Source: Acidobacteriota bacterium (GTDB lineage: Bacteria; Acidobacteriota; UBA6911; RPQK01; JAJDTT01). From it: a stretch of DNA of 64,000 nt. The stretch lies in contig OZ242374.1 of assembly GCA_965209055.1 (NCBI GenBank), positions 480,001 to 544,000 on the forward strand, given 5' to 3'. The notes under the pieces are model-generated. The model did not search any database. It was not told the DNA's origin and saw only the letters and a list, made by a program, of their open reading frames with translations. This document shows, one piece after another, positions 24,139 through 64,000 of the stretch. The position numbers and the translations under genes were made by a program. Within the stretch, counting starts at the first letter, position 1. Each line of letters opens with the position of its first letter.

Positions 24139-24152
24139 GTTCAGACGCGGAG

Positions 24153-25673: not shown

Positions 25674-25708
25674 GATGAGTCTCCTTGTGCCGATGGTTCA
25701 GGTCGACG

Positions 25709-27229: not shown

Positions 27230-27382
27230 GATGGCTCCTTCGGTTCCGGTGGAAGGGTGGGATCTTTCCGGAAAACCTATCACAGCCCGGTTTCCGGGAC
27301 CAACGAGAAGGAGGAATGGCGGGGAGACTTCAAGGCCGATTATTGGGCGCCCGTCACTGTCCCGACTATGATGGAGAGCCGG

Positions 27383-45920: not shown

Positions 45921-45950
45921 CTTGGACCCCCAGTCGATGAGAACCGGCCG

Positions 45951-47342: not shown

Positions 47343-47422
47343 TGCTCCCTCCCCAAATGCAGTCGAGTCACTCCACCAGGATCCGTCGCCGGGCGCCGCG
47401 TGGAACTCGCGCCCCCATCAAC

Positions 47423-48967: not shown

Positions 48968-51145
48968 CTACCCCGAAGCCCCTTCCATGGCAACGGGGCG
49001 CATCACGGGGACTTCGACAATCATTTCGGTGAACTCGCCGGGTTCGGTTTCCACTCGAATGGATCCTCCATGCTCCCGCACGATGTCGTTGGAGAGAGCA
49101 AGGCCCAGACCCGTTCCCTGGTCGGTGGGTTTCGTGGTAAAGAACGGATTGAAGATCTTTTCTACGATCTCAGGCGGAATTCCGTTCCCATTGTCCTTGA
49201 TTCGGACCTCGATCCGGTCTTCGAGACGCCGGGTGGCGACCCACAGAGTCGGCATGTAGTCGAAAAAGCCTTTCCCCGCCTCGATCGCCGCGCGCCGTTT
49301 CTGATCGGTGGCGTAGCAGGCGTTGCCCACCATGTTCAGAAAAACCCGGCCCATGTCCTGCGGAACGACTTCGAACTGACCGGCCTCCGGGTCCAGACTC
49401 ATCTCCATATGGAGCTGGAAATCGGGATCGGTCGCCCTCGCGCTGTGGTAGGCAAGACGGGTGTGCTCGTCGAGCAGGTTGTTGACGTCCGTCACCTGCC
49501 ATTCGCCCGAGCCACGGCCCATCATAAGCATGTCGTGAACGATCCGGTTGGCCCGTTCGCCGTGCTGGTGGATGCGGCGTAGATTGTCGGTGATGTCCTG
49601 AATCAGCTCCGCGACCAGCTCGCGGTCGTCCTTACTCAGTTTCTCGCCTTCTTCTTCCAGGACTTCCTGGAGTTCCTCCAGGAGTTCCTGCGACGCCTCC
49701 GCGAAGTTCTTAACGAAGTTCAAAGGATTCTTGATCTCATGGGCAACGCCCGCGGTGAGCTCACCGAGCGCCGCCAGCTTTTCACGCATGACGATCTGGT
49801 CCTGAGCTTTCCGCAAGTCGGCGAGGACGCTCTCCAACTGTTCGTTCTTACCCCGCAATTCCTCTGCCAGCTTCTCCACCAGGTTCAGACGCTGGACCTC
49901 CAGCGCGTGGCGCCGAAACACCTCCAGGGCGGCGGCCATGTCGGCCACCTCGTCCCTTCCTTCGATCTCGACCTTGCCCTCCAGTTCTCCCCCGGCCATT
50001 CGCCGCATGCGCTGCGACAACAGCGCCAGGCGGCGCAGCAGTATCCGTCCCACGATCAGCCAGGCGATGAGCACGGCGCCGACGATGCTGAGCCCGTTGA
50101 TGGCGACGAGGAGGACTCGGCCCGCCAGAATGGCTTGTGTGGATTCTTGAGTGTCGGCTGCCGCTCTCGCCTGAGACGCTTTCACCAACTCGTCGACGGC
50201 CGCCACCAGGTCAATGGCGATTCCGCGGTTCTCCGCCAAGAGGTCTCTCTGCCGCGCGGTCAGTCTCAATTGGCGGACCAGCAGATTGAGGCAGCCCTCC
50301 TCTCCGGCGCCCAACTCGAAAAGAAGTTGGAAGTCGGCGGAGATCTGCCCAAGCAATTCGGACTCTCCCAGCGACGACAGGCTCCTTTCGATGCGATTGC
50401 GAGACGCCTCGAACTTGTCTCGCAAAGGCTCGATCAGGAAGGCGTCCGAAACCGTGAAAGCACTGTCCAGAAGTTGCGTGGCGGTATTGGCGTCCGCCAG
50501 CAGATCGGTCAAGTGACGAAAGCGATCGAACTGATCTTCCGAGAAATGTTTCCAACGAGGAGCCGGAGGCTCCCCCAAGGTTCGGTGTCCCGTGATGGTG
50601 TAAAAGAATTGGTCATCCACGGTCGGGAAGATGACCCGCTGCAGGCGTCCTTGCAGATCCGCGAGTTCGGTGCGCAGAGCCGAACTCCGCTCGGCCAATT
50701 CGTAAATCGCCGACATGTCGGTTTCGATGGCCTCGATGTTCGATCTCAAGGTATCGGCGTGAGCGCGAATGCGCCGGAAACGTTCGTCGGCCGCATCCTG
50801 GCGCTCCAAAACGGCCAACTGCTCCTCGAGCGCCGTTTTCGACTCGTTGATGCTTGCCGCAACCTGGGCGAAGTCGTCGGTCGTTTCGGCGGTGGTCAGC
50901 CGAGGCGCAGCCGCGACCAGGGCGGCGCTGTACTGCGCCACACCGAACGCGGCCTCCAATTCCGGGAACCGAAGTTCATTGACCCGCCGCTGCAGATCGC
51001 CCACGCGGTCAAAGGAAAACCAGCCCACGAGACTCGCGGCGATCGTCAGGGCGACGGCGCCTCCGATGGTGACGTAGAGCTGCGTCGAGATCCGAAAGCG
51101 ACTCTGCAGCAGACTACCGAGCAAGCGGTTCAGTCGTTCGATCAC
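48968..51145 (-). CDS. membrane sensor histidine kinase (TorS-like periplasmic domain, HAMP, HisKA, HATPase)
   Basis: Two TM helices, GRDEVADMA HAMP, AGVAHEIKNPL H-box, DNGNGI, FFTTKP..GTGLGL. Confidence 0.93.
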   Translation of the reverse strand: MIERLNRLLGSLLQSRFRISTQLYVTIGGAVALTIAASLVGWFSFDRVGDLQRRVNELRFPELEAAFGVAQYSAALVAAAPRLTTAETTDDFAQVAASINESKTALEEQLAVLERQDAADERFRRIRAHADTLRSNIEAIETDMSAIYELAERSSALRTELADLQGRLQRVIFPTVDDQFFYTITGHRTLGEPPAPRWKHFSEDQFDRFRHLTDLLADANTATQLLDSAFTVSDAFLIEPLRDKFEASRNRIERSLSSLGESELLGQISADFQLLFELGAGEEGCLNLLVRQLRLTARQRDLLAENRGIAIDLVAAVDELVKASQARAAADTQESTQAILAGRVLLVAINGLSIVGAVLIAWLIVGRILLRRLALLSQRMRRMAGGELEGKVEIEGRDEVADMAAALEVFRRHALEVQRLNLVEKLAEELRGKNEQLESVLADLRKAQDQIVMREKLAALGELTAGVAHEIKNPLNFVKNFAEASQELLEELQEVLEEEGEKLSKDDRELVAELIQDITDNLRRIHQHGERANRIVHDMLMMGRGSGEWQVTDVNNLLDEHTRLAYHSARATDPDFQLHMEMSLDPEAGQFEVVPQDMGRVFLNMVGNACYATDQKRRAAIEAGKGFFDYMPTLWVATRRLEDRIEVRIKDNGNGIPPEIVEKIFNPFFTTKPTDQGTGLGLALSNDIVREHGGSIRVETEPGEFTEMIVEVPVMRPVAMEGASG

Positions 51146-52326
51146 GGCGCCGCTTCCAGCATTGAGCTGATGGGACGATATTGACCGTCACGACCGATTA
51201 CGGTCAGATAAACGGCATCCGATCCCTGGTTGTCCTGGTCGCCGAAACGAAGCCGGAACCCACCGAGGTCCATCATTCCGGCTTGGCGAAAACCGTCCAG
51301 AAAACCGGCTCGACTAATCTCACCCCCGGACTGCTTCAGGCCGGCAATGGCCAGGCGCCCGGCCAGATAGCCTTCGAAGGAGATGAACCCGGGAACCACG
51401 CCGGATGCGTAGGCAGCAAGGGCGCGATTGTAGTCGCGGACGATGGAACGCGATTTGTCGGTCGGGAAGGGCACGACCTGAGTGACGTAAACACCGGCGC
51501 CGGCGGAGCCGAGCTCCTTCGCCAACGCGTTGCTGCCGACGAAGGAGATGTTCATGAATACGGCTTGGAGGCCCGAAAACCGGGCCCAGGAAATGAATGT
51601 GGCGAGAGGTTTGTACGCGCCGATGAGAATCACGGCTTTGGGGTCCCCGTCGTTGATGTCCAGGAGAGCCATCTTTACCGCCAGGGTATTGCGAGGGTAA
51701 AGGCCGATGGCCACCGGCGTCATATTCCGTCGATCGAGCGCGGCCCGAACCCCACGGTATCCGGCCCGGCCGAAGGAATCGTCCTGGAACAATACGGCGA
51801 TCCGCTTGATTCCCATGTCCTCGGTCAACCTGGCTACCATTTCTTCGGTCTCCTGGTTGTAGGAGGCCCGAAGGTTGATGACGTTGCTCCACTCGGCGGC
51901 GCGCAGGAACTCGGCACCCGTGAAGGGGGCGATATACGGCACGCTGGCGTCCGCGGCAACCGGTACGGCCGCGCGTGAGGTGGGTGTGCCGACTGCGCCG
52001 ATGAGAGCGAAGACCTCTTGTTCCCTGATCAGAGTGACGGTATTGGCAACGGCGGCCTCCGGTTCGTAGGCATCGTCCAGCGACGTCAACTCCAGCCGAC
52101 GGCCATCGATGCCGCCCGCCCGGTTGACCTCGTGGAAGGCGGCCTGGATGCCGAGACGCATGCTGATACCCAACTCCTGGGCAGGACCGCTGAAAGCGGC
52201 GGACTGTCCGAAGAGAATGCGGTCGTCGGAAACGCCGGGTTCCTGCGCCGGAACCGGCAATGCTGTCAGCAACCATGCGGCCACCAAAATGAGGACGCCG
52301 GCCGGCCGGCCGGACCATCGCTTCAC
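51142..52326 (-). CDS. periplasmic binding protein (LivJ/branched-chain type), probable ligand receptor for the kinase
   Basis: Signal peptide; GQSAAFSGPA, GGIDGR, LDDAYEP, GTPT, RASY..E; GTGA overlaps on both sides; no permease or ATPase nearby. Confidence 0.88.
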   Translation of the reverse strand: MKRWSGRPAGVLILVAAWLLTALPVPAQEPGVSDDRILFGQSAAFSGPAQELGISMRLGIQAAFHEVNRAGGIDGRRLELTSLDDAYEPEAAVANTVTLIREQEVFALIGAVGTPTSRAAVPVAADASVPYIAPFTGAEFLRAAEWSNVINLRASYNQETEEMVARLTEDMGIKRIAVLFQDDSFGRAGYRGVRAALDRRNMTPVAIGLYPRNTLAVKMALLDINDGDPKAVILIGAYKPLATFISWARFSGLQAVFMNISFVGSNALAKELGSAGAGVYVTQVVPFPTDKSRSIVRDYNRALAAYASGVVPGFISFEGYLAGRLAIAGLKQSGGEISRAGFLDGFRQAGMMDLGGFRLRFGDQDNQGSDAVYLTVIGRDGQYRPISSMLEAAP

Positions 52327-52742
52327 CGGACCCGCTCCTTGACCAGAGTCACGTGGTTTCTCCCCCCCTGACGCCGATAGCGCAAGTTGTCCACCAGGCT
52401 GCGTACGATATGGATCCCGAGGCCGCCGATGGTGCGTTCCCCTAATTCCACATCCAGATCGGGCTCGGGAGCCTCGCTGGTCGGATCGAACGGATGGCCG
52501 TTGTCCACGATTTCGACGGTGAGGGACTCACCTTCCGCGGTCAGCGTGATCTCGATCTTCTCGAGGTTCTTGGTCTTCCCGTGGGTCATGATGTTGAGTC
52601 CCAGCTCTTCGATCACCAGGTTGATTTGAAAGATCATGTCGGACGGCCATTTTTCCGCGTCGCCGAACTGCTCCACAGCGGCCGTAATCACACTCAGTTC
52701 CTCAACTCTGGGGTCGATTTCCAGGGACAGCTTTCGGCTCAA
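52323..52742 (-). CDS. anti-sigma factor / Ser kinase, RsbW-like (copy 2)
   Basis: LVIEELGLNI..HG, IVDNG.PFDP, GGLGIHIVRSLVD...Y.R.GGRN. Confidence 0.9.
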   Translation of the reverse strand: MSRKLSLEIDPRVEELSVITAAVEQFGDAEKWPSDMIFQINLVIEELGLNIMTHGKTKNLEKIEITLTAEGESLTVEIVDNGHPFDPTSEAPEPDLDVELGERTIGGLGIHIVRSLVDNLRYRRQGGRNHVTLVKERVR

Positions 52743-52909
52743 CGACGCCTCTCGCTCAGACTGGACCTCATAAGGGAGACGACGGGCGACTGCGCCTTGT
52801 CACCGGCGTTATTCCCGTCCGCTCCGAATTTGGCTGGTCATCGGGCATGCCCCGACAGCGCGGCACAGCAGACTCGACCGGCATCCACTCCGGTCTCCAC
52901 GCCGGGATC

Positions 52910-53248
52910 CTATCCGCCATGCTTGGCGACGGCTTCGGACCGGGAGGCATGAGTGGGGATGATTCTGCTGAAACCACTGATCTCAAACACCTCGTTGATG
53001 GTATCGGTGAGCGAGCACACAACGAGCTTTCCACCTCGTCCCTGCAGCTTCTTGGCAATCATCAGAAAAGCTCGAAGGCCGGCACTGCTGATGTAGGAAA
53101 GATCTTGTAAGTCCATGATCAGGAGACGATCGTCCTCCCCGATTGCCTCGTGGAGCGCCTCCTCGAATTCGCGGGCATTGGTGCCGTCGACACGGCCCTC
53201 CGCTCGGGTGATCAAGATCCCTCCTTCCCGCTCGGCGTGAACCTCCAT
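52910..53248 (-). CDS. anti-sigma factor antagonist (STAS), RsbV-like
   Basis: GRVDGTNAREF, DLQDLSYISSAGLR (phospho-Ser motif), VFEISGF. Confidence 0.92.
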   Translation of the reverse strand: MEVHAEREGGILITRAEGRVDGTNAREFEEALHEAIGEDDRLLIMDLQDLSYISSAGLRAFLMIAKKLQGRGGKLVVCSLTDTINEVFEISGFSRIIPTHASRSEAVAKHGG

Positions 53249-53484
53249 TGCTCTGACTCCCGGATATTGTGACCTAATCCTTCCGACAATTTGCCGCGAT
53301 ATTACCACCGGTGGACCTTCAAGCGAAACCACCACGCCACGGTCGGCAGATGGTTTTCGTTGCCGGGAAATGGTACGGAAGGCTGAATGCCACTGATGAG
53401 GCCGACTCCTTTTCCCGCTTGAGGACGCCCGAGCCGGCGATTTGAGCGGCGCGGCTGCCTGATGCCGAGGGAACCCGGCGACCC

Positions 53485-54735
53485 TCAAAAATTGTAAATC
53501 AAGGCCAATTCGACGAAGCTGTCGCGCCGAGTCAAATAGGTGAGATCCACTTCCTGGATACCCCGAAAGGCGATCGACTCCAGACGCAGAGACCACTGAT
53601 CCGAGATGCGCCGGTTCAATTCCAGAGTCAGCACCTGTCCTGAACTGTCGGCGTCTCGCAGAATGCTGGCGAGAAGCTCGGTGCTCTGAACGTCGTTGAA
53701 GGCTATCCTCGCGGCCAGGAAAAAATCATTCTGGAAGATGTTGGTGGCATATTGGCGCCGGTCGTCGTAGTTCCATTCGCTGAGCAGCGTAAGATCCAAC
53801 GCCGAGCCGGATACGGAATAGAACGTGTACTCGCCGCCAAACGTGGAAGCCGAGTAGTCTTCTTCCACGCCGAGAAGGTTTTGGGCGCCGGTTCGCCGAA
53901 TCGCCTCGAGCTTGAACAGCCAGGACCCGGCCGTCACCTGGGCGTCCAGCCCGAACTGCCGGATCTGCTCGTAGTATGGGACCAAGGCCGGTTCTCCGGA
54001 GAGGCCCGGATCCAGAGTCAGAAAGGGATCTCGACTGGTGCCGTCGAAAACGCTCATGCCCAGGTCGAGAGGCCCGAAACTGCGACTGTAGCGGCCGGCT
54101 AAATCCAGATGCCACTGCTTGGCGTCGCTCTCATAGGAAATCATGTCGTTGTCCACAACAAACGGAAGTCGCAGACGGCCGAAGCGGCCTGGAAAGGTGC
54201 GGCCACGGTGATACGTCAGGCCGAAGACTTCCGCCGTTCCCCAATCGCCGGAAAAAGTAAGGTGGGCCATGGGTTGGCCCAGCTTGGGTTCCTTGTAGGG
54301 ATGTTCCACCAGGTCGATCTGGTTGACGATGTTGACCAGGTGGCGGGATTCGGTGACTCCCCAGAACACCCGGTCCACCCCTAGACGGAGCTCCCATTCG
54401 CTATTCGCGACGTCGCCGAACAGCAGAAGGTAGGCTTCACGCAGATCGACATGGGTTCGGCTCGGGTCCCCGGCGTCGTAACGAAAAAACGGCGCCAGAT
54501 TGAAGCTCCGGCCTCCATGGTCTTCGAGATAGAATTCGGGCTCGATGGCCAGACCGCTTGCGTGTGAACGCTGGCCGGGGTACGCCGCACTTTGGGGATG
54601 CCACCGGCTTTCAAGGCTCACGCGCCCCGAAGTCTCGTGCCTGACGATCTCGGCCCGGAGTCCGCCAATACAGACTGGGATGAGAAGCCCCGCAGTGCAG
54701 AATCGCGCGCACCGAATGACGAGACGGCGGGGCAT
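53485..54735 (-). CDS. putative outer-membrane beta-barrel protein
   Basis: Signal peptide; DLREAY, VFWGVTES..L...NQ.D, terminal LIYNF; TAATG coupling to the LolA-like gene. Confidence 0.8.
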   Translation of the reverse strand: MPRRLVIRCARFCTAGLLIPVCIGGLRAEIVRHETSGRVSLESRWHPQSAAYPGQRSHASGLAIEPEFYLEDHGGRSFNLAPFFRYDAGDPSRTHVDLREAYLLLFGDVANSEWELRLGVDRVFWGVTESRHLVNIVNQIDLVEHPYKEPKLGQPMAHLTFSGDWGTAEVFGLTYHRGRTFPGRFGRLRLPFVVDNDMISYESDAKQWHLDLAGRYSRSFGPLDLGMSVFDGTSRDPFLTLDPGLSGEPALVPYYEQIRQFGLDAQVTAGSWLFKLEAIRRTGAQNLLGVEEDYSASTFGGEYTFYSVSGSALDLTLLSEWNYDDRRQYATNIFQNDFFLAARIAFNDVQSTELLASILRDADSSGQVLTLELNRRISDQWSLRLESIAFRGIQEVDLTYLTRRDSFVELALIYNF

Positions 54736-55559
54736 TAACGAATCCGTTGCAGCCCGGTGCGGGTGAAGTCGCGATCGTTGAGCTTGGTCCGGAATTCATA
54801 TTCCGTCCATGTCAGAACGGTGCTTTTCCCGGTGAGATGATTCACCATCGTCATCTCGCCCGCCTGCCAGTAGCGATCCAGGTACTGCCGGTAGTTCCTC
54901 AAGGTGAGGGTCTTCAGGTGCGAATCCTTGCGATCGTAGTATTCCACCTTCCAAACGCGAAACGCGTCTTTGTCCTGCCAGACCAACTGCCTGCGGTAAC
55001 CCGATTTCTTGTCCACAGGGACGCGCTCGGAGACGGTGCACGTCAACTCGCCGCAAGGCTCGTCCCGCAGGTATCGGTAGCTGAATCTCTCCACTTCCTG
55101 CGCGCTCATGTCCTCATAGGCGAACTCGCTGCCCATGAAGGAGCCGGAGCGGTTCGACGAACTGATCCGTTTCACCCGCTTCAGCGCCGGGAGATAGAGC
55201 CACTGGTCGTCCGCCTTGTCGCGATGGGCGTGGATCAGGAAAGCCGTTCCCTTGACGTCCCGCGGCTCATCGAAGACGAACATGCTCTTGTCTCCGTCTC
55301 CGGGCACTTCGAGCACCCTGACCCGGAGTTGGCGCCGACTCTCCTTCCCCTGCTTGTTCCGCAACACCATGGTCTGTTGAGCCGTAAAATTGCCGAATCC
55401 GTCTCCCTGCTCCCGCGCTTCGAGCGCAATCTTCAGGCCGATTTCTTCGGGGGAAGCGTCGTCGGAACGGGCGAACGCCGGCGAAGCCAGACAGGCCATG
55501 ACGACGACGGCAGGAACCACATGCGCGAGGGGAGACCGGACGGAACAAGAGTAAATCAT
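54735..55559 (-). CDS. outer-membrane lipoprotein-sorting (LolA-like) periplasmic protein
   Basis: F.EPRDVKGTAFL, DDQWLYLPALKRVKRI, SFMGSEFAYED, EYYDRK...LKTL, M.NH.TGKST; ATGA overlap with the MMPL gene. Confidence 0.9.
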   Translation of the reverse strand: MIYSCSVRSPLAHVVPAVVVMACLASPAFARSDDASPEEIGLKIALEAREQGDGFGNFTAQQTMVLRNKQGKESRRQLRVRVLEVPGDGDKSMFVFDEPRDVKGTAFLIHAHRDKADDQWLYLPALKRVKRISSSNRSGSFMGSEFAYEDMSAQEVERFSYRYLRDEPCGELTCTVSERVPVDKKSGYRRQLVWQDKDAFRVWKVEYYDRKDSHLKTLTLRNYRQYLDRYWQAGEMTMVNHLTGKSTVLTWTEYEFRTKLNDRDFTRTGLQRIR

Positions 55560-57859
55560 GATTTTCTCCGATCGAGGGCCATCAACAGAGGCGGCAGCAG
55601 AAAGAAATCGGCGAGAAGCGCGAACACTATGGTGATCGTGACCATGAGTCCGAGCGACCGGCTGACCTCGAATCCCGATGAAGCGAACACCAGGAAGCCG
55701 GCCGACAAGACCGCAGTCGTGGTCCACAGAGCCTTTCCGACAGTGTTGAATGTGGAACGCACGGCCGCGGCCGCATCCAGGCCCTGGCGGCGCCCCTTCA
55801 GATACTTGGTCAGGAAATGAATCGTGTCGTCTACGACGATACCGAACGCAATCGCGGTCATCACGGAACCGGCCAGACCCAGATTGCCCACCAGATAGCC
55901 CCAGAATCCGAAGCTCATTGCCGCAGGAATGAAGTTGGGAATCAGACTGATGAGTCCGTGGCGCACGCTCCGGAATATCAGGACCAGGATGAACGAGACG
56001 ATGGCCATGGCAATGATCGTCCCCCGCAGCATGCTTTCGATGTTTCGAAGAGAAAGGTGGGCAAAGACCACACTGAGGCCCGTGGCCGGCACGACTCGAT
56101 GGGGCAGGTTGGCGCGGAGCCAATCTTGAGCGCGAGCGTCCAACTCGCGCAGGCCCCGCGACGAAGAGTCACGGACCGTCACCGTCATGCGGGTCTCGGA
56201 CTTGGCGATGTCGATCCGGTTGTTCAGGTCATTGCCGAAGGGAAGCGACAGCTCGTAGACCAACAGGTATTGGGCCGCGAGTTCGGGGTCGTCCGGCAAC
56301 CGATAGTAACCGGGGTCGTCGCCGTGCATGTTCTTGTTCAGGCGTTTCATGATGTCCGGGAACGCCTGGACATGGGTCACTTCGGGTTGCGTGCGGTACC
56401 ATTCGGCGAATTTCTCGACGGCGCCCAGATATTCGGGATCGGTGATGCCGCCTTCCCGTCCCGCTTTCAGCGAATACTCCAGCGTATCCAAGCCGGTCAG
56501 GTTTTCGATGACGAAATCCGTATCGCGCCGGAACTGGTAGCGCTCGTCGAAATACTTGGGCCAATTGTCGCTCAACTGGTTGCGGGGGATGCCCATGACG
56601 AGGCCTATGGCGATGAGGGGAACGAACCAGAGCAGAAATCTGCGCTTGGCCACGACAAAGGCGCCGAAGCGTTCGAAGAAGAGAGTCTTTTCAGGGAGCA
56701 GCCGGCGCGCGCGCAGCGGCAGGATCGAAAGCACCGCCGGCAGAAGCAACATGGAATAAACGAAAGCACAAGAAACACCGAACGCCACCAGATTGCCCAG
56801 GACGCGAAACGGAGGCGAGTCCGAAGCGTTCAGGCTGAGAAAGCCGATCACCGTTGTGAGAGTCGTCAGAAATACGGGATAAGCATTGGTCCGCACGGAT
56901 GCCGCGATCGCGGCGTTCCTGCTCAAACCGCGGCTCATGCCCAGCAAGGTGCTGGTGACGATGTGAATTGAATCCGCAACGGCGACCGCCATCACGATAA
57001 TGGGTACCCCGGCATTGGTCGGACTCATCACGGTTCCGAGCCAGCCCGCCAACCCCATTGTCGTGTTGACGATGAATACGAGCAGGACCGAGATGGACAG
57101 GGTGGCAAGAAACGAGCGCAGAAGAATCGCGGCGGAGGCCGCGATCACCAGAAAAACGATGGGAACCAGGATCTGAAGATCGTCCTGTGTGGCTTCGGCG
57201 AAGGCGCGGTGCATGACGACATCGCCGGTCAGGAAATAGGCGATTTCAGGATGCCGTCCGCGAGCCTCTTCCAGAGCGGCGTTGAGATAGTCGGTGATCT
57301 CCGCCACCGCGGCGTCCGGATCTTCGGGCAGGACGAAATTGATGGTCAAGCCGCCGACGCGGCCGTCGGTGGAGACCAGGCGCCCGGCGATCTCGGAAGC
57401 ATTCAGCGCAATCGTCCGGATTCGGGCCAGGTCGGCATCGTTCAGAGACTGTGCGTCATCGACCAGCGGCTCGACCACCAGATCGTCCTCGACCGCTTCG
57501 CTATGGGAATAGTTGGTGAGGGAATCGACCCGTGTGGAATAGGGGGCGCCCCAGGCAGCTTCGGTCAGTTCCTCGATCGCCCCAAGCGCCTCGAGCGTGA
57601 ATACGGAACCCGCCCCGGGCGCAATGGCGATCAATGCCCTGTTGGATGCGGCATACGTGTTCTCCAGGGCATCGAATGCGGCGAGTTGAGGATTGTCTTC
57701 GTCGAACAGAATTCGGTAGTCGTTCGTGGTGGTGATGTACCGGGCACCTGCCGTCATGACCAGCATGACCACTGTCGCAACCACCAACACCGTCCAGCGG
57801 TGGTTCAGGACAACAGCAATGTAGCGGTCCAAGAAGGGCGACGTCATACCTTCGTTCAC
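55556..57859 (-). CDS. MMPL/RND family lipid exporter
   Basis: Twofold symmetric TM protein; AVADSIH...TTLTTVIGFLS and GIVVDDTIHF...TTAVL..GF motifs. Confidence 0.93.
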   Translation of the reverse strand: MNEGMTSPFLDRYIAVVLNHRWTVLVVATVVMLVMTAGARYITTTNDYRILFDEDNPQLAAFDALENTYAASNRALIAIAPGAGSVFTLEALGAIEELTEAAWGAPYSTRVDSLTNYSHSEAVEDDLVVEPLVDDAQSLNDADLARIRTIALNASEIAGRLVSTDGRVGGLTINFVLPEDPDAAVAEITDYLNAALEEARGRHPEIAYFLTGDVVMHRAFAEATQDDLQILVPIVFLVIAASAAILLRSFLATLSISVLLVFIVNTTMGLAGWLGTVMSPTNAGVPIIVMAVAVADSIHIVTSTLLGMSRGLSRNAAIAASVRTNAYPVFLTTLTTVIGFLSLNASDSPPFRVLGNLVAFGVSCAFVYSMLLLPAVLSILPLRARRLLPEKTLFFERFGAFVVAKRRFLLWFVPLIAIGLVMGIPRNQLSDNWPKYFDERYQFRRDTDFVIENLTGLDTLEYSLKAGREGGITDPEYLGAVEKFAEWYRTQPEVTHVQAFPDIMKRLNKNMHGDDPGYYRLPDDPELAAQYLLVYELSLPFGNDLNNRIDIAKSETRMTVTVRDSSSRGLRELDARAQDWLRANLPHRVVPATGLSVVFAHLSLRNIESMLRGTIIAMAIVSFILVLIFRSVRHGLISLIPNFIPAAMSFGFWGYLVGNLGLAGSVMTAIAFGIVVDDTIHFLTKYLKGRRQGLDAAAAVRSTFNTVGKALWTTTAVLSAGFLVFASSGFEVSRSLGLMVTITIVFALLADFFLLPPLLMALDRRKS

Positions 57860-59028
57860 CAGGGACTCGATTTCGACGCCCGAACGTGGTCAGGCATCTT
57901 GTAACTCATCGCGCCCAACACGGCCTCGTCGTAGACCGAGATTTCGAGCATCTGGCAAAAATTCTCCGACCTGATCAACTGCTGGCTCTTGAGCAGATGC
58001 TGAAAACGTTGTTTCAACCGGTAAGCGAACAGCACACCCAAGGTATTCGACTTTGGAAACTGCAACTGGTCGGCAAGCCTGTTTCCGATCAGGGAGCGTG
58101 ACAGCCGGTAGGCCAGGTCCTTCACGGCGACCTGTTCCTCCGGGTCTTCGATTCCCGCCGTCAGGGGAATCGCCTCTACCAGCGCGTTGGCCATGGTGGC
58201 CGAATCACTGTCCGGGGTCGGCTCGCACATGTGGGCTACATCGAATATTTCGCGCGCGTGGCTTTCACTGGAAAAGAGGATGGACTCGGGCACCCCCATG
58301 ACGTACCCGGCGTATCGCCAGACTTGCAGCACACTCTCTCGCTCCTCCCCGGAATACCTGGCCCCCACGGAAATCGAATGCTGGAGCAGGCGCATGGAAA
58401 AGACGGTGGTGGCGAAACCCAGGTGCGCCGCGCTGATCGGCGTACCCCAAGCATCGGCATCCCAAGCGTCGGAATTCGCCAACAGGTGCCTCACTCGGGC
58501 GTGAACGAAGCGAAGGCGCATGGAGAGCTTCCAACCATCTCCATCCCTCCGCAGACCTCCGGGGAAAAACACCTCCAGCAGATGGCGGTTGTTCTGCATC
58601 AGGCGCCTTCTCGCGGTCAAGGGGCTCAAGACGCGTCCCGTCGTGGCGAAAGACTTGGCGATCAGCGTCGCAAATCCCTCGATCAGCACGCCCGTGACAA
58701 AGGCGACGAGGATTTTCGTCGTGTTCAGGTGAAAGGCCCGGACGCCGGGACGAAAAGCTTCGTAGTCGAACCAGGGGGGATCTTCCAGATTCTCGAAAAA
58801 ACCGCGCAGTGACTGCGGCGCGGCGCGAAGACCCTCTTCGTCCTGGTCGATCCCGGCTCGGATGAATCGATGCAATACGTGGGGCGGCAACGAGGAGACC
58901 TCGTCCATCACCGGATCGAGCGCGGGGTCGCCGACGGTCGTGTGCCGGATATAGCTGTCGGCAAGCGTCTGGTCGTAGCGCCGGGCCTCCCGGTAGCCCT
59001 CGACATACGCCGAGGGGGATTGCAGCAT
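57856..59028 (-). CDS. MpaB/Lcp (latex-clearing protein, DUF2236)-like heme oxygenase
   Basis: GDPAL, PPW.D, TGR.....ARRRL, GWK.SMRLRFVHARVR (family R..H motif with heme His), WGTPI, WRYAGYVMGV. Confidence 0.85.
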   Translation of the reverse strand: MLQSPSAYVEGYREARRYDQTLADSYIRHTTVGDPALDPVMDEVSSLPPHVLHRFIRAGIDQDEEGLRAAPQSLRGFFENLEDPPWFDYEAFRPGVRAFHLNTTKILVAFVTGVLIEGFATLIAKSFATTGRVLSPLTARRRLMQNNRHLLEVFFPGGLRRDGDGWKLSMRLRFVHARVRHLLANSDAWDADAWGTPISAAHLGFATTVFSMRLLQHSISVGARYSGEERESVLQVWRYAGYVMGVPESILFSSESHAREIFDVAHMCEPTPDSDSATMANALVEAIPLTAGIEDPEEQVAVKDLAYRLSRSLIGNRLADQLQFPKSNTLGVLFAYRLKQRFQHLLKSQQLIRSENFCQMLEISVYDEAVLGAMSYKMPDHVRASKSSPW

Positions 59029-59152
59029 TCGTCGATCTCCTGACAGTCTGCCTGACTGATGGACAGCAGCGGATCTTCAGGACGCTCCGTCCGGAGAACT
59101 GTCCCGGTCGAAGGCCATTCCAGATTCGACGGTGAATCTCCAGGCCCGATCA

Positions 59153-59170
59153 ATGCGCCGCGCGTGCCAG
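59153..59170 (-). promoter_or_regulatory. candidate sigma54 promoter for the oxygenase-export operon
   Basis: Minus strand CTGGCACGCGCGGCGCAT = TGGCACG -24 element with GG-N10-GC spacing, ~125 bp upstream of the start at 59028. Confidence 0.4.
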
Positions 59171-59419
59171 CCAATCACATGCGGATGCGCCGAAAGTGCC
59201 CGCCGTAAAGGGTTTTATGCTCGATCCAATTCCCTGGACCGAGTCAGCAACAAATCATAGCACACAGTAACGACCCCCCTCCCATTTTCAGGAAGGCCGC
59301 TGCCGGATCAAATATCCCGGCCGCAGGATTGATCAACCGGCGGTTTCCGGCCCCATGCACGTTGTCGCATTCCGGTCATTGATCCAGAGTCCGGGAGTCT
59401 GATCGAACCCGTCAACCGG

Positions 59420-60697
59420 CTACGGGCGCTCCGCACCAGGCGTCCCGGATCCCGCTATGACGCGAGCCGCCATCTGACCGGAACGAACTGCGCTCTCGAT
59501 GGTTGCGGGCAGACCCGTGTCGATCCAATCCCCGGCCAGAAACAGGTTGGCGAACTCGCTTCCGGTCGAGGGACGGCGCCTCACCTGGCCGGGCGTCTGC
59601 GCGAACGTGGCGCGCTTTTCCTTGACGACGCGGCAGCGGGGTATCCTTTCGCGCTCCTGGCCCAACGCCGCCGCAACGTCGTTCCAACTCCTGCGGGCAA
59701 TGACTTCTGCCGGCTCGCCTGCCAGTGCGTCCGCTGCGCTGACGGTGACGGAAGCCACGTCGCCGCGAATGAAGAGCCACTGCGCGGTTCCCCCGATCAG
59801 TCCGAGGAGAGGAAGCTCCGGCGGCATTCCGGCCGGTTTGGACAACCGGAAATGAGCGTTGACGATGGCGTGGGTTTCGCCGGGGACGGACAACCCCGGC
59901 ACCAGCTCCGCCGCAGCCAGAGGAGGAACAGCCAGTACCACGGACCCGCCTTCCCGCAATCGTATTCTTTCGGAGCCGAAGTCCAGACCGTTCGCGCGGC
60001 GGCCCCGGTAGCTGATCCTGCGTAATCGGCGGCCGAACCGAACCGTCGCGCCCCTTTGGTGAAGGAACTTCAGGGCCGGGTCCACGAAGGCGGCGGAGAG
60101 TCCTGTCTTGGCGATCCGCGGCCGGCAGGCCGCCTCCCCTCGGGCGAATGTCTCACGCAAAACGGACCACAGGAGCCTCGCCGCCCCGGATCGAGCCGGC
60201 GTATTCAATGCACCGACCGCCAGCGGTTTCCAGAATCTCTCGAAGAGAACGCCGGTTCCTCCGACGCAGTCGGTCACGGTCGCGTCGGCACCCGCCGTGA
60301 CGAACCGCAGCGCCGAAAAGTAATTCCAGACCCTTGTGTCCGGCACCCGCCGCCCGGACTTCAGGATCCACCACGGGAGTCGTCCGGCATTCGGCCGCAG
60401 CAGCCACCTTTGACCCGTGCGCAAATCCAGGAACGGAAAGCAGGCGGAAGCCGGGCCGATCAGAAAGTCGGCGGCCTCGATGTCAGCCAGGTAGCGCATC
60501 GCGGCGCGGTTGCCGCTCAGCAGCAGATGGTTGCCGTTGTCTATCGTGCGCTCAAGCTTGGCATCGGCGTAGGAGCGGCAGCGGCCTCCCGCATGGCCGC
60601 CCGCTTCGTAGAGCGTCACGTCCCGGCCTCGCCGCACCAGCGACACCGCGGTGGCGAGACCCGCCAAACCGGCGCCGATGACGTGGGTTCGGGGCAC
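59420..60697 (-). CDS. hpnE: hydroxysqualene dehydroxylase (FAD-dependent)
   Basis: VIGAGLAGL, GGRCRSY, IDNGNHLLLSGN, EKRATF, LAGDW..TGLPATIE.A; follows hpnC-hpnD. Confidence 0.92.
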   Translation of the reverse strand: MPRTHVIGAGLAGLATAVSLVRRGRDVTLYEAGGHAGGRCRSYADAKLERTIDNGNHLLLSGNRAAMRYLADIEAADFLIGPASACFPFLDLRTGQRWLLRPNAGRLPWWILKSGRRVPDTRVWNYFSALRFVTAGADATVTDCVGGTGVLFERFWKPLAVGALNTPARSGAARLLWSVLRETFARGEAACRPRIAKTGLSAAFVDPALKFLHQRGATVRFGRRLRRISYRGRRANGLDFGSERIRLREGGSVVLAVPPLAAAELVPGLSVPGETHAIVNAHFRLSKPAGMPPELPLLGLIGGTAQWLFIRGDVASVTVSAADALAGEPAEVIARRSWNDVAAALGQERERIPRCRVVKEKRATFAQTPGQVRRRPSTGSEFANLFLAGDWIDTGLPATIESAVRSGQMAARVIAGSGTPGAERP

Positions 60698-60709
60698 GGT
60701 GAAACTCCG

Positions 60710-61642
60710 TCAGCACAGACCGTAACGCAGAGCGAGCAGCAGCTTCCGGAACCGCGTCAGCCGGATGCCGACGTCGAGCCGCGTCCATCCCCGCTCTTCC
60801 AGGCGATCGAGCAATTCCCGGTACACCGCCATCATGAGAACGGCAGGGCGAATCCTCCGCCATCCGAATTCGGCGATGAGTCTTTCGGTTTCGGCGTAGT
60901 AACCTCGAGCGAGACCGGCCAGTTCGGCGCAGGCTGCGCTAAAGCCTGGATGACTCAGGGTTGCGTTCAACGACGTGGCGGCGACGCCGTGCTTGCTCAG
61001 CAACTCCTGTGGCACGTAGAGCCGATGCAACGCCGCATCCGCCTTCAGGTCACGAAGGATATTCGTCAGTTGCAAAGCGTTCCCCAGCGTCTCGGCGATT
61101 TGAAATCCGGGGTTGCGCGGCACGCCGAAAGCATGGATGGACAGCCTGCCGACAGCTCCCGCGACCTTGCGGCAATAGTGCAACAAATCATCCAGGTCCT
61201 GCATCCGCACGGTGGGCCCGGCATCGATTTCCATACCCTCGATCACCGCCAGGAATTCCTCTTGCGGCAAGTTGTAACGGCGCACCGGTTTCAACAGTGC
61301 CCTCGTGGTCGGCCAATTCGGCTCCCCCGCATAGAGCCGGTCAATCTCTTGCCTCCATGCCGCCAGCGCTCGCCTCTTGTCGGCGTCTTCGCCCGGTTCG
61401 TCGGCAATGTCGTCGACTTCCCGGCAGAACGCATAGATGGCGTAGATTGCACGGCGCCGCTCCGCCGAAAGCGCTCTCATGCCCCACAGGAACGACGTGC
61501 CCGAACGCGCTACGACACGATTCACGTGATCCGCGGGATTGATCCGACCGCCGGGCCGGCTTCCCGGTCCGGCTTGCGATCGAGATACCGTCCTCACGTT
61601 GTCAGCCTTCCCGCGGCGGAAACCTTCATGTCGCACAACCAC
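60710..61642 (-). CDS. hpnD: presqualene diphosphate synthase
   Basis: SGTSF..GM, YAFCREVDDIAD, YC..VAGAVG, LG.ALQLTNILRD, RLYVP; start uncertain. Confidence 0.9.
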   Translation of the reverse strand: MVVRHEGFRRGKADNVRTVSRSQAGPGSRPGGRINPADHVNRVVARSGTSFLWGMRALSAERRRAIYAIYAFCREVDDIADEPGEDADKRRALAAWRQEIDRLYAGEPNWPTTRALLKPVRRYNLPQEEFLAVIEGMEIDAGPTVRMQDLDDLLHYCRKVAGAVGRLSIHAFGVPRNPGFQIAETLGNALQLTNILRDLKADAALHRLYVPQELLSKHGVAATSLNATLSHPGFSAACAELAGLARGYYAETERLIAEFGWRRIRPAVLMMAVYRELLDRLEERGWTRLDVGIRLTRFRKLLLALRYGLC

Positions 61643-61690
61643 TGCGACGTCGGCCCTCCAGCCCGCGTTTCTTCATCGGAAACACGACGA

Positions 61691-62578
61691 TCATGTTACT
61701 TGTTCGGCTTCGGTGCGCCGACGCCGGACCCTCACGAGCAAGGTCCGGCCGATTCCACGCCAAAAGCAGGCCGCGTACTGAACCTTGGTCAGCACGACCC
61801 GTTCGGCCAAAGGGTCCCGCCGGCGCAACTCCCTGCTGAGCTTCCGGGCGATGGCTACGATCACGGCCGTTTCCATGGCGAAACGAAGGTTGCGAAACCG
61901 GTCCGGCAGGCGATCCGCCGACTCCAACAACGTCTCGGTTGCATCGAGGCACCGATTCAATACTCGCCTGAGCGCCGGAGTCGAACGCCTGCGTCCCAGC
62001 ACCTCGACACCGGCCCCGGCCGCCGCCATCCAGTTCTGAGGAAGATAGACCCGGTTCAACGAACGGTAGTCAGGTCCGCAGTCCTGCAGGTGGTTGAGCA
62101 CCTGGAGCGCGTTGCAAAGGGCGTCGCAGGCGGGATACGCGGCCTTCGATTCGCCATGAAGGTCGACCAGGTAGCGCCCCACGGGCGCCGCCGAAAGATC
62201 ACAGTAACCGATGAGATCGTTCCAGTCGGCATACCGCAGTTTGGTCGCGTCCTGAATGAAGGCGCGCGTCAGATCGACACAATGCCGATGGGTGACCTGC
62301 GTGATCTCCAGACTGCGGCGGACGGCGTGAGCTTTGCCAAAAGCCGGATCACCTGTTTCGGCGCCCCTCACCGCTCTGGCGAAGCCGTCCAGTCGTTCGA
62401 TCTTGTCTCCCGGATCCAGGTCGGGGTTGTCGGCAATATCGTCGATCGCCCGGGCATAGGCATAGAAGGTTGCAATATGAGGTCTCAGGTGCGCCGGCAG
62501 CAACCAGGAGCCGACGGGGAAGTTCTCATCCGCCGCAGCTTTGCCGGACGGCGTCTCCATGGCAGCGGCCCTGTCCAT
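61691..62578 (-). CDS. hpnC: hydroxysqualene synthase
   Basis: ENFPVGS, Y..ARAIDDIAD, AF.QD..K.RY..W..L..YC..SA.PVGR, ALQVLNHLQD, RVYLP. Confidence 0.92.
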   Translation of the reverse strand: MDRAAAMETPSGKAAADENFPVGSWLLPAHLRPHIATFYAYARAIDDIADNPDLDPGDKIERLDGFARAVRGAETGDPAFGKAHAVRRSLEITQVTHRHCVDLTRAFIQDATKLRYADWNDLIGYCDLSAAPVGRYLVDLHGESKAAYPACDALCNALQVLNHLQDCGPDYRSLNRVYLPQNWMAAAGAGVEVLGRRRSTPALRRVLNRCLDATETLLESADRLPDRFRNLRFAMETAVIVAIARKLSRELRRRDPLAERVVLTKVQYAACFWRGIGRTLLVRVRRRRTEAEQVT

Positions 62579-62757
62579 CGCGAACCCATAGGCGACCGAT
62601 CAGATCGCTCGCGTGTTTGACAGCACCGGGGGTTGGGAGCCTGGAACTGCCAACGTCAGGCTATGGCGAAAGTTGCCGTCCCTACCAACCGCCGCGCCGG
62701 CGTGGCGCGCTTGGAGCCGGGAGGAGTTGGAGCGCGCCGCCATGGCGGATCCCGGCG

Positions 62758-63177
62758 TCACTCGGCCAACTCTTTGACCAGGGTCAGGTAGTTTCTACCT
62801 CCGTCGCGGCGATAGTGCATCTCGTCCATCATGGTGCGCACCAGGTAGACACCCAGACCGCCCACGGCACGGTCTGCGACTCCGGAGTCCAGATCGGGCG
62901 AGGGCGCATCCTCCAACGGATCGAAGGGAAGGCCATTGTCCACGATCTCGATGGTGAGCGTTCCCGGTTCCGAGGTCAAAGTGATCTCGATCTCATGGAG
63001 ATCGTCGGTCCTGCCATGGTTGATGATGTTGAGTCCCAACTCCTCGAGCACCAGATTGACTCGAAAGACGAGTTGCGGGGGCCATTTCTCGGCGTCGCCG
63101 AATTCTTCCACGGCGGCTGTGATCGTATCCAATTCTTCGGCCCTGGGTTCAACCTTCAGGGCCAGCTTCCGGCTCAA
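62758..63177 (-). CDS. anti-sigma factor / Ser kinase, RsbW-like (copy 1)
   Basis: LVLEELGLNI..HG, IVDNG.PFDP, GGLGVYLVR; TTGA overlap with the PP2C stop. Confidence 0.9.
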   Translation of the reverse strand: MSRKLALKVEPRAEELDTITAAVEEFGDAEKWPPQLVFRVNLVLEELGLNIINHGRTDDLHEIEITLTSEPGTLTIEIVDNGLPFDPLEDAPSPDLDSGVADRAVGGLGVYLVRTMMDEMHYRRDGGRNYLTLVKELAE

Positions 63178-64000
63178 CGATCGCTCTCCCTTCGATAGAG
63201 CACCATGCAGGTGATGTCGTCCGATTGAGGAGTATCCCCGACGAAGTCCCTGACCGCCTCGAAGACCGCGTTGTTGGCCTCCTCGGAATCTTTCGGGGGC
63301 CCATCCGCAAAGATCTCGAACAGACGTTCCGTACCGAACTCTTCGCCGTCGTCGTCCATGGCCTCGGTGACGCCGTCGGTGTAGAAAATCACGGTGTCTC
63401 CGGGTGAAAGGACCACGGTGTTTTCGTGGAAATCGAGGTCGGGAATCACGCCCAGGGCGATCCCATGAGTGAGAGGAAGCAGAGAGGAGCGTCCGTCGGC
63501 ATGGACGACCAGCGGGGAGTTGTGTCCGCCGTTGGCGTAGGTCAGTTCTCCGCTGGCCGGATTGTACACCGCGTACAGGAGGGTGACGAACATGGCGGCG
63601 TCGTTGTCCTCGTCAAGCAGGTTATTGACCTCCCCCAGGACCCGGCCCGGATCCAGAGTTCCGATGGCGGCGCCCTTGAGCAGAGTCCGGCTGGACATCA
63701 TGAAGAGCGCGGCAGGCACTCCCTTGTCCGAAACGTCCGCAATGGCCAGGCCGACCCGGCCTTCGTGGAGGTAGATGACATCGTAAAAATCTCCGCCCAC
63801 ATTGCGAGCCGCCTCCATGCTGGCGGACACTTCGTAGTCGGTGCCCTTGGGGAACTGACTGGGAAGGATGGATTGCTGCATCTGGTTGGCGACATTGAGT
63901 TCGTTCTGCAACGCGACCAGCTTGTCCCGCGAAGCCAGGGCCTCGCGCCACTCCATCATGTGCTGGACCGTCCGGTCGATGGTGATTCGAAGGTCTTTGA
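63174..64000 (-). CDS. PP2C/SpoIIE (RsbU-like) phosphatase, probably with N-terminal receiver domain; 5' end outside window
   Basis: VGGDFYD, IADVSDKGVPAALFM, MFVT, NGGH, YTDGVTEA, DDIT; frame stays open to the window end (KDLRITIDRT resembles the last receiver helix). Confidence 0.92.
   Translation of the reverse strand, partial: KDLRITIDRTVQHMMEWREALASRDKLVALQNELNVANQMQQSILPSQFPKGTDYEVSASMEAARNVGGDFYDVIYLHEGRVGLAIADVSDKGVPAALFMMSSRTLLKGAAIGTLDPGRVLGEVNNLLDEDNDAAMFVTLLYAVYNPASGELTYANGGHNSPLVVHADGRSSLLPLTHGIALGVIPDLDFHENTVVLSPGDTVIFYTDGVTEAMDDDGEEFGTERLFEIFADGPPKDSEEANNAVFEAVRDFVGDTPQSDDITCMVLYRRESDR

Follow-up and report, generated by a model that had tools for sequence, protein, structure and literature searches.

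Lcp oxygenases cleave the C=C bonds of polyisoprene, as described in part of PMC6311187, and act extracellularly (PMC5522427), while the fungal enzyme MpaB', namesake of the Pfam family PF09995 (formerly DUF2236) and a component of mycophenolic acid biosynthesis, cuts a farnesyl chain at its terminal double bond, C19=C20 (sections of bioRxiv 10.1101/524025 and PMC6900556). Among terpene exporters, AmeABCD of Castellaniella defragrans exports and protects against monoterpenes, and comprises an HAE3 pump, a DUF1302 outer-membrane protein, a DUF1329/LolA-superfamily protein and the periplasmic AmeC (COG4447), according to the portions of PMC6394551 that describe it. The squalene-forming trio HpnC, HpnD and HpnE belongs, with Shc and HpnN, to the hopanoid pathway. 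A squalene route to C30 carotenoids is reportedly another bacterial pathway that uses HpnCDE, and many squalene-making bacteria have no cyclase. Here we analyze a 64,000-nucleotide (nt) stretch of an Acidobacteriota genome (GCA_965209055.1, contig OZ242374.1, positions 480,001 to 544,000; hereafter the window), in which seven co-oriented minus-strand genes at 53485-62578 (open reading frame (ORF) coordinates; Table 1) bring together hpnC, hpnD and hpnE, an MpaB/Lcp-family oxygenase, a pump, a periplasmic carrier and an outer-membrane barrel.

With Lcp of Streptomyces sp. K30 (5o1l, 5o1m), the window oxygenase shares the PF09995 domain, a globin-like all-helical fold and the residue pairs H198/H176 and R164/R142, and the Lcp substrate is a polyisoprenoid C=C bond. 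However, the two proteins are ~18-20% identical, and Lcp is a catabolic enzyme with a polymer substrate, whereas the window oxygenase is encoded in a biosynthetic cluster whose precursor is a C30 compound. MpaB'/PgMpaB, as the parts of the literature cited above present it, acts in biosynthesis as a tailoring enzyme, cleaving a double bond in the farnesyl chain built by its own pathway, which is the logic we propose here, although it is eukaryotic, bound to the endoplasmic reticulum membrane and active on a meroterpenoid side chain; it was compared by description rather than by sequence. The hopanoid pathway uses the same squalene-forming trio, and there too an HAE3-type pump follows the lipid. 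Unlike the hopanoid and C30-carotenoid routes, however, the window genome has neither a cyclase nor a CrtN-type desaturase above cut-off and carries a haem oxygenase instead.

The squalene synthase, the oxygenase and the exporter are, we are fairly confident, functionally linked. The arrangement goes beyond chance, because it recurs elsewhere in several different gene orders. Our comparison set comprised 41 loci holding a relative of the oxygenase, from 38 genomes, all of them uncultured metagenome-assembled genomes (MAGs) with one genome per species; window and locus proteins were mapped onto these loci by tblastn and the neighbors were scanned with Pfam and NCBIfam. For the related loci, gene positions rest on tblastn and on a crude ORF caller based on third-position guanine-cytosine content in place of a proper gene finder. 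By record title the genomes belong to Acidobacteriota, Latescibacterota, Gemmatimonadota, Pseudomonadota (gamma and alpha), Rhodothermota, Chloroflexota and Myxococcota; some bin names look like those of marine sponge microbiome studies, a resemblance that literature searches by taxon name did not confirm and on which we base no claim about habitat.

An SQS_PSY-family gene lies within ~10 kb of the oxygenase in 23 of the 41 loci (21 genomes), parts of a resistance-nodulation-division (RND) pump stand beside it in 27, and synthase and pump occur together in 19. An HAE3-LolA module follows the oxygenase in 18 loci, accompanied by the barrel in 16; the other nine pump loci have AcrB, HlyD or OEP genes (eight loci) or an MmpL-type pump (L032). 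The oxygenase-export block adjoins hpnCDE in the close relatives L005, L006 and L055 and, in other orientations, in the unrelated Pseudomonadales MAGs L010, L014, L027 and L030. Linkage of the block to hpnCDE outside this genome, which an earlier preliminary description of the window's sequence had proposed looking for, is thus present. HpnC and/or HpnD is the synthase in L005, L006, L010, L014, L027 and L030. The remaining synthase loci carry a squalene synthase (SQS)-like gene of 320-410 amino acids (aa) whose best NCBIfam match is the eukaryote-type squalene synthase TIGR01559; the eight such genes scanned scored 82.5-131.5 bits, all below the cut-off of 286.75, which no match across the 38 genomes reaches. 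The L018 gene, the one compared with the PDB, has human (E 1.4e-16) and trypanosomal squalene synthase as its best matches there, both at E of about 1e-16. We read the SQS-like gene as a putative, diverged one-enzyme squalene synthase.

Close spacing to isoprenoid and export genes recurs as well. Immediately upstream of the oxygenase, L010, L012 and L036 have a gene for isopentenyl diphosphate (IPP) isomerase (NF002995, 169-170 bits, cut-off 127), which in L010 overlaps the oxygenase gene by 4 nt. In L020 and L021 the isomerase gene is found a few kb upstream, and in L028 IspH adjoins the SQS-like gene. The oxygenase overlaps HlyD by 4 nt in L023, precedes the SQS-like gene by 32 nt in L019 and follows the MmpL-type pump by 30 nt in L032, a Dehalococcoidia MAG. 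A maximum-likelihood tree of 28 oxygenases does not follow phyla: sequences from Palauibacter, Rhodothermales and Longimicrobiales group at 100/99 support, and MAGs labelled as seven phyla hold oxygenases that are 57-79% identical. Because the tree cuts across phyla, it points to repeated horizontal transfer of the oxygenase. At least eight synthase/pump arrangements are scattered over this tree; what stays constant is the oxygenase, and its two partners have each given way to non-orthologous equivalents. Genome-wide, 35 of the 38 oxygenase genomes have either an HpnD over or just under cut-off (above it in 11, just under it in two) or an SQS-like gene of at least 82 bits (matches of 82-132 bits in 26); the exceptions are G037 and G038, each with a 191-bit HpnD-like gene, and G003, which has none.

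Some of these loci have further features. In the Pseudomonadales MAG L027, which carries the oxygenase-HAE3-LolA block, a putative S-adenosylmethionine methyltransferase (L027:17048-18136, plus strand; Sterol_MT_C 57.7 bits, with CMAS) lies ~2 kb beyond hpnD and may act on a triterpenoid. An HpnE-related amine oxidase falls within the oxygenase-pump cluster of L030 (13632-15002), a gammaproteobacterial MAG, and of L037 (11124-12629), an alphaproteobacterial one, scoring 85.6 and 108.5 bits, respectively, on TIGR03467 (cut-off 283.05). HpnD in L030 has an SQS-like gene as its partner in place of HpnC. The oxygenase homologue of L024 has an internal stop, and those of L031 and L040-L043 are split into two frames, either through decay, as in G083 and G086 (see below), or through long-read indel errors.

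The enzymes of the known bacterial fates of squalene are all absent from the window's genome, a single contig of 6.08 Mb with reported completeness of 98.4% and contamination of 7.4%. The squalene-hopene cyclase (shc) model TIGR01507 reaches at best 21.9 bits genome-wide against a cut-off of 431.1, and the squalene epoxidase domain PF08491 has no match in the genome. The only genome-wide match to PF13243 scores 26.8 bits in the scan of the genome and 29.6 bits as a 403-aa ORF; it is a repeat protein, and we rejected it as a cryptic cyclase. The only SQS_PSY (PF00494) genes are hpnC and hpnD. Among crtI-family matches in the genome, the best one (119.7 bits, cut-off 238.1) belongs to a 569-aa amine oxidase encoded beside a sulfatase gene, far from hpnCDE; with no crtI-family match at cut-off, we set the route to C30 carotenoids aside, leaving some room for a diverged desaturase. 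The preliminary description had noted that no cyclase or other hpn gene lies next to the cluster, which is correct (the flanking genes are regulatory), and had asked whether shc lies elsewhere: above cut-off it is absent from this genome, from its whole order (76 genomes) and from 35 of the other 38 oxygenase genomes.

The fourth gene product had been described as an MpaB/Lcp-like oxygenase with the motif RLRFVHARVR, and both the family and the motif hold: a profile search of 57856-59028 gives PF09995 (MPAB_Lcp_cat) at 68.6 bits, against a gathering cut-off of 23. By sequence, its only relatives in the PDB are two Lcp K30 entries (E 4e-8 with the single protein, 3e-15 with a profile of 28 homologues). 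For an AlphaFold (AF2) model built on the alignment of these 28 homologues (predicted local distance difference test score (pLDDT) 89.1, predicted template modelling score (pTM) 0.89), the best Foldseek match was Lcp 5o1l_B (template modelling (TM) score 0.72/0.74, probability 1.0, E 8.6e-8) and the second was t-anethole oxygenase 8s1j (E 2e-3), an alkene-cleaving anethole oxygenase by its entry title. His176, within RFVHARVR, aligns with the proximal haem ligand H198 of Lcp, and Arg142 with Lcp R164; both are invariant in the 28 homologues, and His176 is the putative proximal haem ligand. Part of PMC6311187 describes R164, T168 and H198 (LcpK30 numbering) as three near-invariant residues of DUF2236. 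Two of the three are matched here (R142 and H176), and the T168 equivalent is Asn146, itself near-invariant in the homologues.

Other Lcp positions are less well kept: the distal K167 aligns with Gln145, and the proposed base E148 aligns with S126 within an unreliable stretch of the alignment. Given different residues at the positions of K167 and T168 and no reliable alignment for E148, the protein is a member of the PF09995 superfamily and not an Lcp in the strict sense. Its N-terminus (MLQSPSAYVEGYREARRYDQ) has no hydrophobic signal segment, and the model is helical from residue 6; the enzyme is predicted to be cytoplasmic, with a b-type haem. The subfamily is rare: among 1.84 billion representatives, 169 representative clusters match at E <= 1e-30 and 2521 at E <= 1e-3, and a search of the ESM Atlas with the oxygenase returned MpaB-family clusters only.

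Each of the three squalene-forming proteins scores above the NCBI equivalog cut-off of its own model: HpnC on TIGR03464 (270.8 bits, cut-off 250.45; PF00494 182.4 bits), HpnD on TIGR03465 (312.6 bits, cut-off 278.6; PF00494 238.1 bits) and HpnE on TIGR03467 (389.3 bits, cut-off 283.05; PF01593 121 bits). On the sister HpnD model, the HpnC protein reaches 109.3 bits, below the cut-off. Because the family match of HpnD begins only at residue 44, the true start of hpnD may lie downstream of the longest GTG. The set of seven co-oriented genes proposed in the preliminary description was confirmed by ORFs, Pfam and NCBIfam, as were the translational overlaps among the last four: the pump start overlaps the oxygenase stop (GTGA), the carrier start overlaps the pump stop (ATGA) and the barrel start overlaps the carrier stop by 1 nt (TAATG).

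Rather than a single tightly coupled operon, the seven genes seem to form two adjoining units, since 391 nt precede the oxygenase, compared with 48 nt between hpnC and hpnD and 12 nt between hpnD and hpnE. This spacer is conserved in the close relatives L005 and L006 and closes with an AGGAG ribosome-binding site 8 nt ahead of the oxygenase ATG. The promoter of the second unit probably lies within it. No promoter-like consensus was found in the spacer, counts from promoter and terminator scans were not above those in shuffled sequence, and an Rfam search of 52000-64000, spacer included, gave zero matches at E <= 0.1.

Table 1. Genes and spacer of the squalene-oxygenase-export locus and its regulatory flanks, in window coordinates.
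Feature	Position	Strand	Length and assignment
hpnC	61691..62578	-	295 aa; hydroxysqualene/squalene synthase HpnC; TIGR03464, PF00494
hpnD	60710..61642	-	310 aa from longest GTG start; presqualene diphosphate synthase; TIGR03465, PF00494
hpnE	59420..60697	-	425 aa; hydroxysqualene dehydroxylase dependent on flavin adenine dinucleotide (FAD); TIGR03467, PF01593
Intergenic spacer hpnE/oxygenase	59029..59419	-	391 nt
MpaB/Lcp-family haem oxygenase	57856..59028	-	390 aa; PF09995 (formerly DUF2236); predicted cytoplasmic
HAE3/MMPL-type RND inner-membrane transporter	55556..57859	-	767 aa; PF03176, PF12349
LolA-like periplasmic lipid carrier	54735..55559	-	274 aa; PF17131; N-terminal signal peptide
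Outer-membrane beta-barrel, distantly DUF1302-like	53485..54735	-	416 aa; PF06980; signal peptide
SpoIIE/PP2C phosphatase	63174-63959	-	upstream flank; PF07228 187.4 bits
RsbW-like anti-sigma kinase	62758-63177	-	upstream flank; PF13581 92.4 bits
STAS anti-sigma antagonist, RsbW-like kinase, periplasmic binding protein, HAMP histidine kinase	48968..53596	-	downstream flank; Pfam/NCBIfam

The pump matches PF03176 (MMPL) at 97.3 bits (cut-off 20.5) and PF12349 at 27 bits. Its best NCBIfam match is the HAE3 model TIGR00921, at 164.7 bits under a cut-off of 351.9; with MMPL above cut-off and HAE3 below it but best in NCBIfam, we describe the pump as HAE3/MMPL-like. The nearest solved structure, weakly, is that of the hopanoid transporter HpnN (5khn, E 8.9e-6), and on the HpnN model TIGR03480 the pump scores 74 bits, far below the cut-off of 751.85. 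The carrier matches PF17131 (LolA_like) at 208.7 bits and DUF1329 at 35.6 bits. At another site, the genome has a second LolA_like gene, scoring 158.1 bits (G000:C1:5594145-5594690, minus strand). The last protein matches PF06980 (DUF1302) marginally (26.7 bits, cut-off 23.2). Its AF2 model, of moderate quality (pLDDT 64.1, pTM 0.59), is all-beta with ~20 strands, and Foldseek matched it to 16-18-strand porins and OccK/OprD channels (probability 1.0, TM 0.4-0.55). Given these matches, the all-beta model and the signal peptide, an outer-membrane barrel is a reasonable, model-based assignment.

As in AmeABCD, at least as parts of PMC6394551 present that system, the cassette combines an HAE3 pump with a LolA-superfamily protein and a DUF1302-type outer-membrane protein; the substrates of AmeABCD are terpenes. 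It differs in that the AmeC (COG4447) partner is absent, so that three of the four kinds of part form a gapless, overlapping cassette without a fourth gene; in that the carrier is of the shorter PF17131 type (274 versus 451 aa) and the DUF1302 match is marginal; and in that AmeABCD is tied to monoterpene catabolism, not to squalene synthesis. By this comparison, which is one of descriptions and not of sequences, the window cassette may work like a three-part Ame variant without belonging to the AmeABCD type. The aryl polyene lipid cluster described in part of PMC8253772 similarly has its own RND pump and LolA-like carrier (ApeL/ApeM/ApeN), proposed to deliver the lipid to the outer membrane, yet its product is of the polyketide type, its third part is a LolB-like DUF3261 protein and not a barrel, and its transport role is itself a proposal.

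Oxidative cleavage of squalene followed by export is, in our judgment, the best reading of this locus, falling just short of probable; it is favored because the described relatives of the oxygenase (Lcp, MpaB' and t-anethole oxygenase) all cut C=C bonds. In this scheme HpnC, HpnD and HpnE would convert farnesyl diphosphate to squalene by way of presqualene diphosphate and hydroxysqualene, a conversion established for the families to which all three proteins belong by score. The cytoplasmic b-type-haem oxygenase, with O2, would then attack a C=C bond of squalene, and the likeliest reaction would be an Lcp/MpaB'-like cleavage to an aldehyde and a ketone. More speculatively, a cut at the terminal bond, as by MpaB', would give a C27 trisnor-squalene aldehyde and acetone, whereas a cut at an inner bond would give geranylacetone-type fragments; from the structure of squalene, C8/C22 and C13/C17 pairs would be conceivable. 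The lipophilic product could pass from the inner membrane through the HAE3/MMPL-type RND pump to the LolA-like carrier and on to or through the barrel, by analogy with AmeABCD and ApeLMN. The oxygenase-export cassette would be an accessory extension of squalene synthesis. The preliminary description's proposal that squalene is made, oxidatively cleaved and exported gains support in outline from the linkage in other genomes and from the lack of shc; the chemistry, the product sizes and the signalling or host-interaction role that it put forward are conjectural.

The coupling is one-sided. Within the organism's own order (76 genomes, the window's and the unpublished G108 included; oxygenase profile threshold E <= 1e-40), the oxygenase subfamily occurs in six genomes and the hpnC/D pair in nine, and the pair is found in all six oxygenase holders versus 3 of the 70 genomes without the oxygenase, a contrast that is descriptive and not statistical because the genomes are close kin (two genera). 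The cassette appears to need a squalene synthase in the genome, whereas squalene synthesis does not appear to need the cassette. In the window's genus, hpnCDE is kept in eight of nine genomes. The full seven genes occupy a shared chromosomal site, framed by the two regulatory flanks, in the window's genome, G080, G084 and G056, the last from another genus.

Several observations weigh against the cleavage-and-export reading, beginning with this genus. The oxygenase is intact and adjacent in only three of the eight hpnCDE genomes (the window's, G080 and G084); G083 and G086 have hpnCDE, pump, carrier and barrel without it, G087 has hpnCDE with only carrier and barrel, and G082 and G085 have hpnCDE alone, with no cassette. 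Remnants of the oxygenase gene persist in G086 (some 250 nt of its 5' end and 78 nt of its 3' end) and in G083 (some 175 nt of the 5' end), which argues for an ancestral full cluster with later deletion; in these two genomes the oxygenase was deleted from that cluster. Both also hold a diverged oxygenase copy elsewhere (L053 and L054), 48-53% identical to the window protein. The genomes G082, G085 and G087 have hpnCDE without any oxygenase copy. In these cyclase-free relatives hpnCDE is a stable core with a role of its own, and the cassette is accessory and decays piecewise. Because hpnCDE and the pump are kept after the deletion, squalene has another role and the pump can outlast the adjacent oxygenase.

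The same side of the balance includes points from the locus itself and from the wider comparison. The 391-nt gap parts hpnE from the oxygenase, and a search for sequencing runs returned five DNA-type entries from two studies and no RNA runs. With K167/T168 replaced by Q145/N146 and E148 not reliably aligned, the mechanism of the oxygenase may differ from that of Lcp. The export parts form a generic cassette and not a pathway-specific one, given the very close PDB homologue of the LolA-like protein (3bk5, E 1.4e-82). Ten of the 41 loci have neither synthase nor pump (L013, L022, L026, L029, L031, L035, L038, L039, L044 and L045), of which three (L026, L031 and L044) come from short or cut contigs and two (L044 and L045) hold distant relatives, at 33% identity. 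An shc above cut-off occurs in 3 of the 38 oxygenase genomes (G018, G019 and G034), and G006 has a cyclase-like match of 291.8 bits, under the cut-off of 431.1. The coupling of squalene, oxygenase and export that the preliminary description put forward therefore survives insofar as the linkage recurs, but is weaker than it implied, given the gap and the retention of hpnCDE after deletion of the oxygenase.

If the parts are linked, their chemistry could still be other than cleavage. Hydroxylation or epoxidation of squalene, or attack on a hydroxysqualene- or presqualene-derived intermediate, would yield a polar C30 lipid that the RND chain puts into the outer membrane as a hopanoid substitute. 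The same linkage evidence fits, the hopanoid cyclase is absent from the genome and the whole order, the weak structural match of the pump is to a hopanoid transporter, and the altered or unaligned Lcp residues leave room for another reaction. Nevertheless, we consider such chemistry unlikely, since Lcp, MpaB' and t-anethole oxygenase all cleave C=C bonds, none being described as a simple hydroxylase, and since a structural membrane lipid would be expected to stay, yet the cassette decays within the genus. Alternatively, the cargo that the RND chain delivers to the outer membrane may be squalene itself, in which case the oxygenase would serve turnover or safety by removing excess or damaged squalene. 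Persistence of hpnCDE and the pump in G083 and G086 after deletion of the adjacent oxygenase would be explained in this way, and unfunctionalised terpene hydrocarbons are among the substrates of HAE3 pumps such as AmeD (in portions of PMC6394551). The oxygenase, however, is the element that stays constant across phyla while pump and synthase types swap, its gene overlaps that of the pump here and that of HlyD in L023, and the diverged copies kept by G083 and G086 mean that its function may persist there, all of which makes squalene export a rather remote candidate.

A role outside squalene metabolism appears more doubtful still. The cassette could detoxify or catabolize foreign terpenoids, like AmeABCD, and lie beside the squalene genes through shared regulation or transfer; its export parts resemble AmeA, AmeB and AmeD, Lcp itself is catabolic, and the oxygenase tree shows transfer between phyla. 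Yet the oxygenase has no signal peptide, whereas Lcps are extracellular (PMC5522427), it is coupled in operon fashion to IPP isomerase (L010, L012 and L036) and to the SQS-like gene (L019), IspH being a near neighbor in L028, and the scanned neighborhoods hold no recurring downstream catabolic genes, so that we regard detoxification as improbable. That the adjacency is a mere accident of lineage, with no functional link, seems scarcely credible to us: the 391-nt gap and the loss of the cassette without loss of hpnCDE would fit, but an SQS_PSY gene lies within ~10 kb in 23 of the 41 loci, in at least eight arrangements and several phyla, while by our own estimate a ~5 Mb genome with one to three such genes would give a chance of ~1% per locus. 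The differing gene orders also contradict a single recently transferred island.

Returning to squalene cleavage and export, we offer tentatively, as a possibility somewhat short of an even one, a wider form of the proposal: a three-part module of squalene synthase (HpnCDE or a one-enzyme SQS), cytoplasmic Lcp/MpaB-type haem dioxygenase and RND exporter that has passed among at least seven bacterial phyla and that makes and secretes apo-triterpenoids, the squalene counterparts of the apocarotenoids released by carotenoid cleavage enzymes. Bacterial squalene would then have a fourth fate, besides hopanoids, sterols and C30 carotenoids. Since such a module is accessory and easily lost, its product would more likely be ecological or signalling than a structural lipid. 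In the main texts of the open-access and bioRxiv literature, we found no link between MpaB/Lcp/DUF2236 proteins and bacterial squalene synthesis; HpnCDE/Sqs neighborhoods are tabulated in the supplement of PMC7306690 and could bear on how new the pairing is. In its logic the locus, a terpenoid cluster that carries a tailoring oxygenase as well as an exporter, resembles apocarotenoid formation, with what would be an unreported pairing of enzyme and substrate and an unreported fate of bacterial squalene.

The regulatory genes on either side of the locus (Table 1) are retained in eight relatives (L005, L006, L048-L052 and L055) whatever lies between them, some of these loci ending before the downstream kinase or binding-protein gene. 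An upstream STAS gene, present in the relatives' loci, falls beyond the end of the window. The hpnCDE genes are thereby bracketed on both sides by partner-switching regulators; the flanks are a conserved context and may place squalene synthesis under stress or signal control.

Other features of the window and its contig lie outside the locus. A 1.41-kb segment at 45946-47355 is 99.4% identical to C1:2383305-2384714 and may represent either a mobile element or a gene end that is repeated and overlaps the ATP-grasp gene region. At 24152-27244 and 14836-17487, two pairs of neighboring 1.0-1.5-kb segments with 75-85% identity suggest tandem paralogous genes. The first ~173 kb of the contig repeat, in inverted orientation and at 97-99.5% identity, the region that bears the window, and the next ~32 kb are a direct near-copy of 789-835 kb (G000:C1:1-204,967 versus 484,586-642,277 and 789,046-835,550, with window positions 4586-64000 in the first pair). 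The whole cluster is consequently found twice in the assembly, with a second oxygenase copy at C1:116481-117644. In view of the reported contamination, this probably reflects a second strain or an assembly artefact and not a true duplication.

The cluster is a concrete candidate for the step that comes after squalene in cyclase-free bacteria. If squalene cleavage and export is the correct reading, it would add a new class of bacterial terpenoid products, give a function to a rare branch of DUF2236 and provide the first natural biosynthetic substrate for the widespread HAE3-LolA-like-barrel cassettes. Should that reading fail, this genus would still be a good place to study the role of squalene in bacteria that lack a cyclase.

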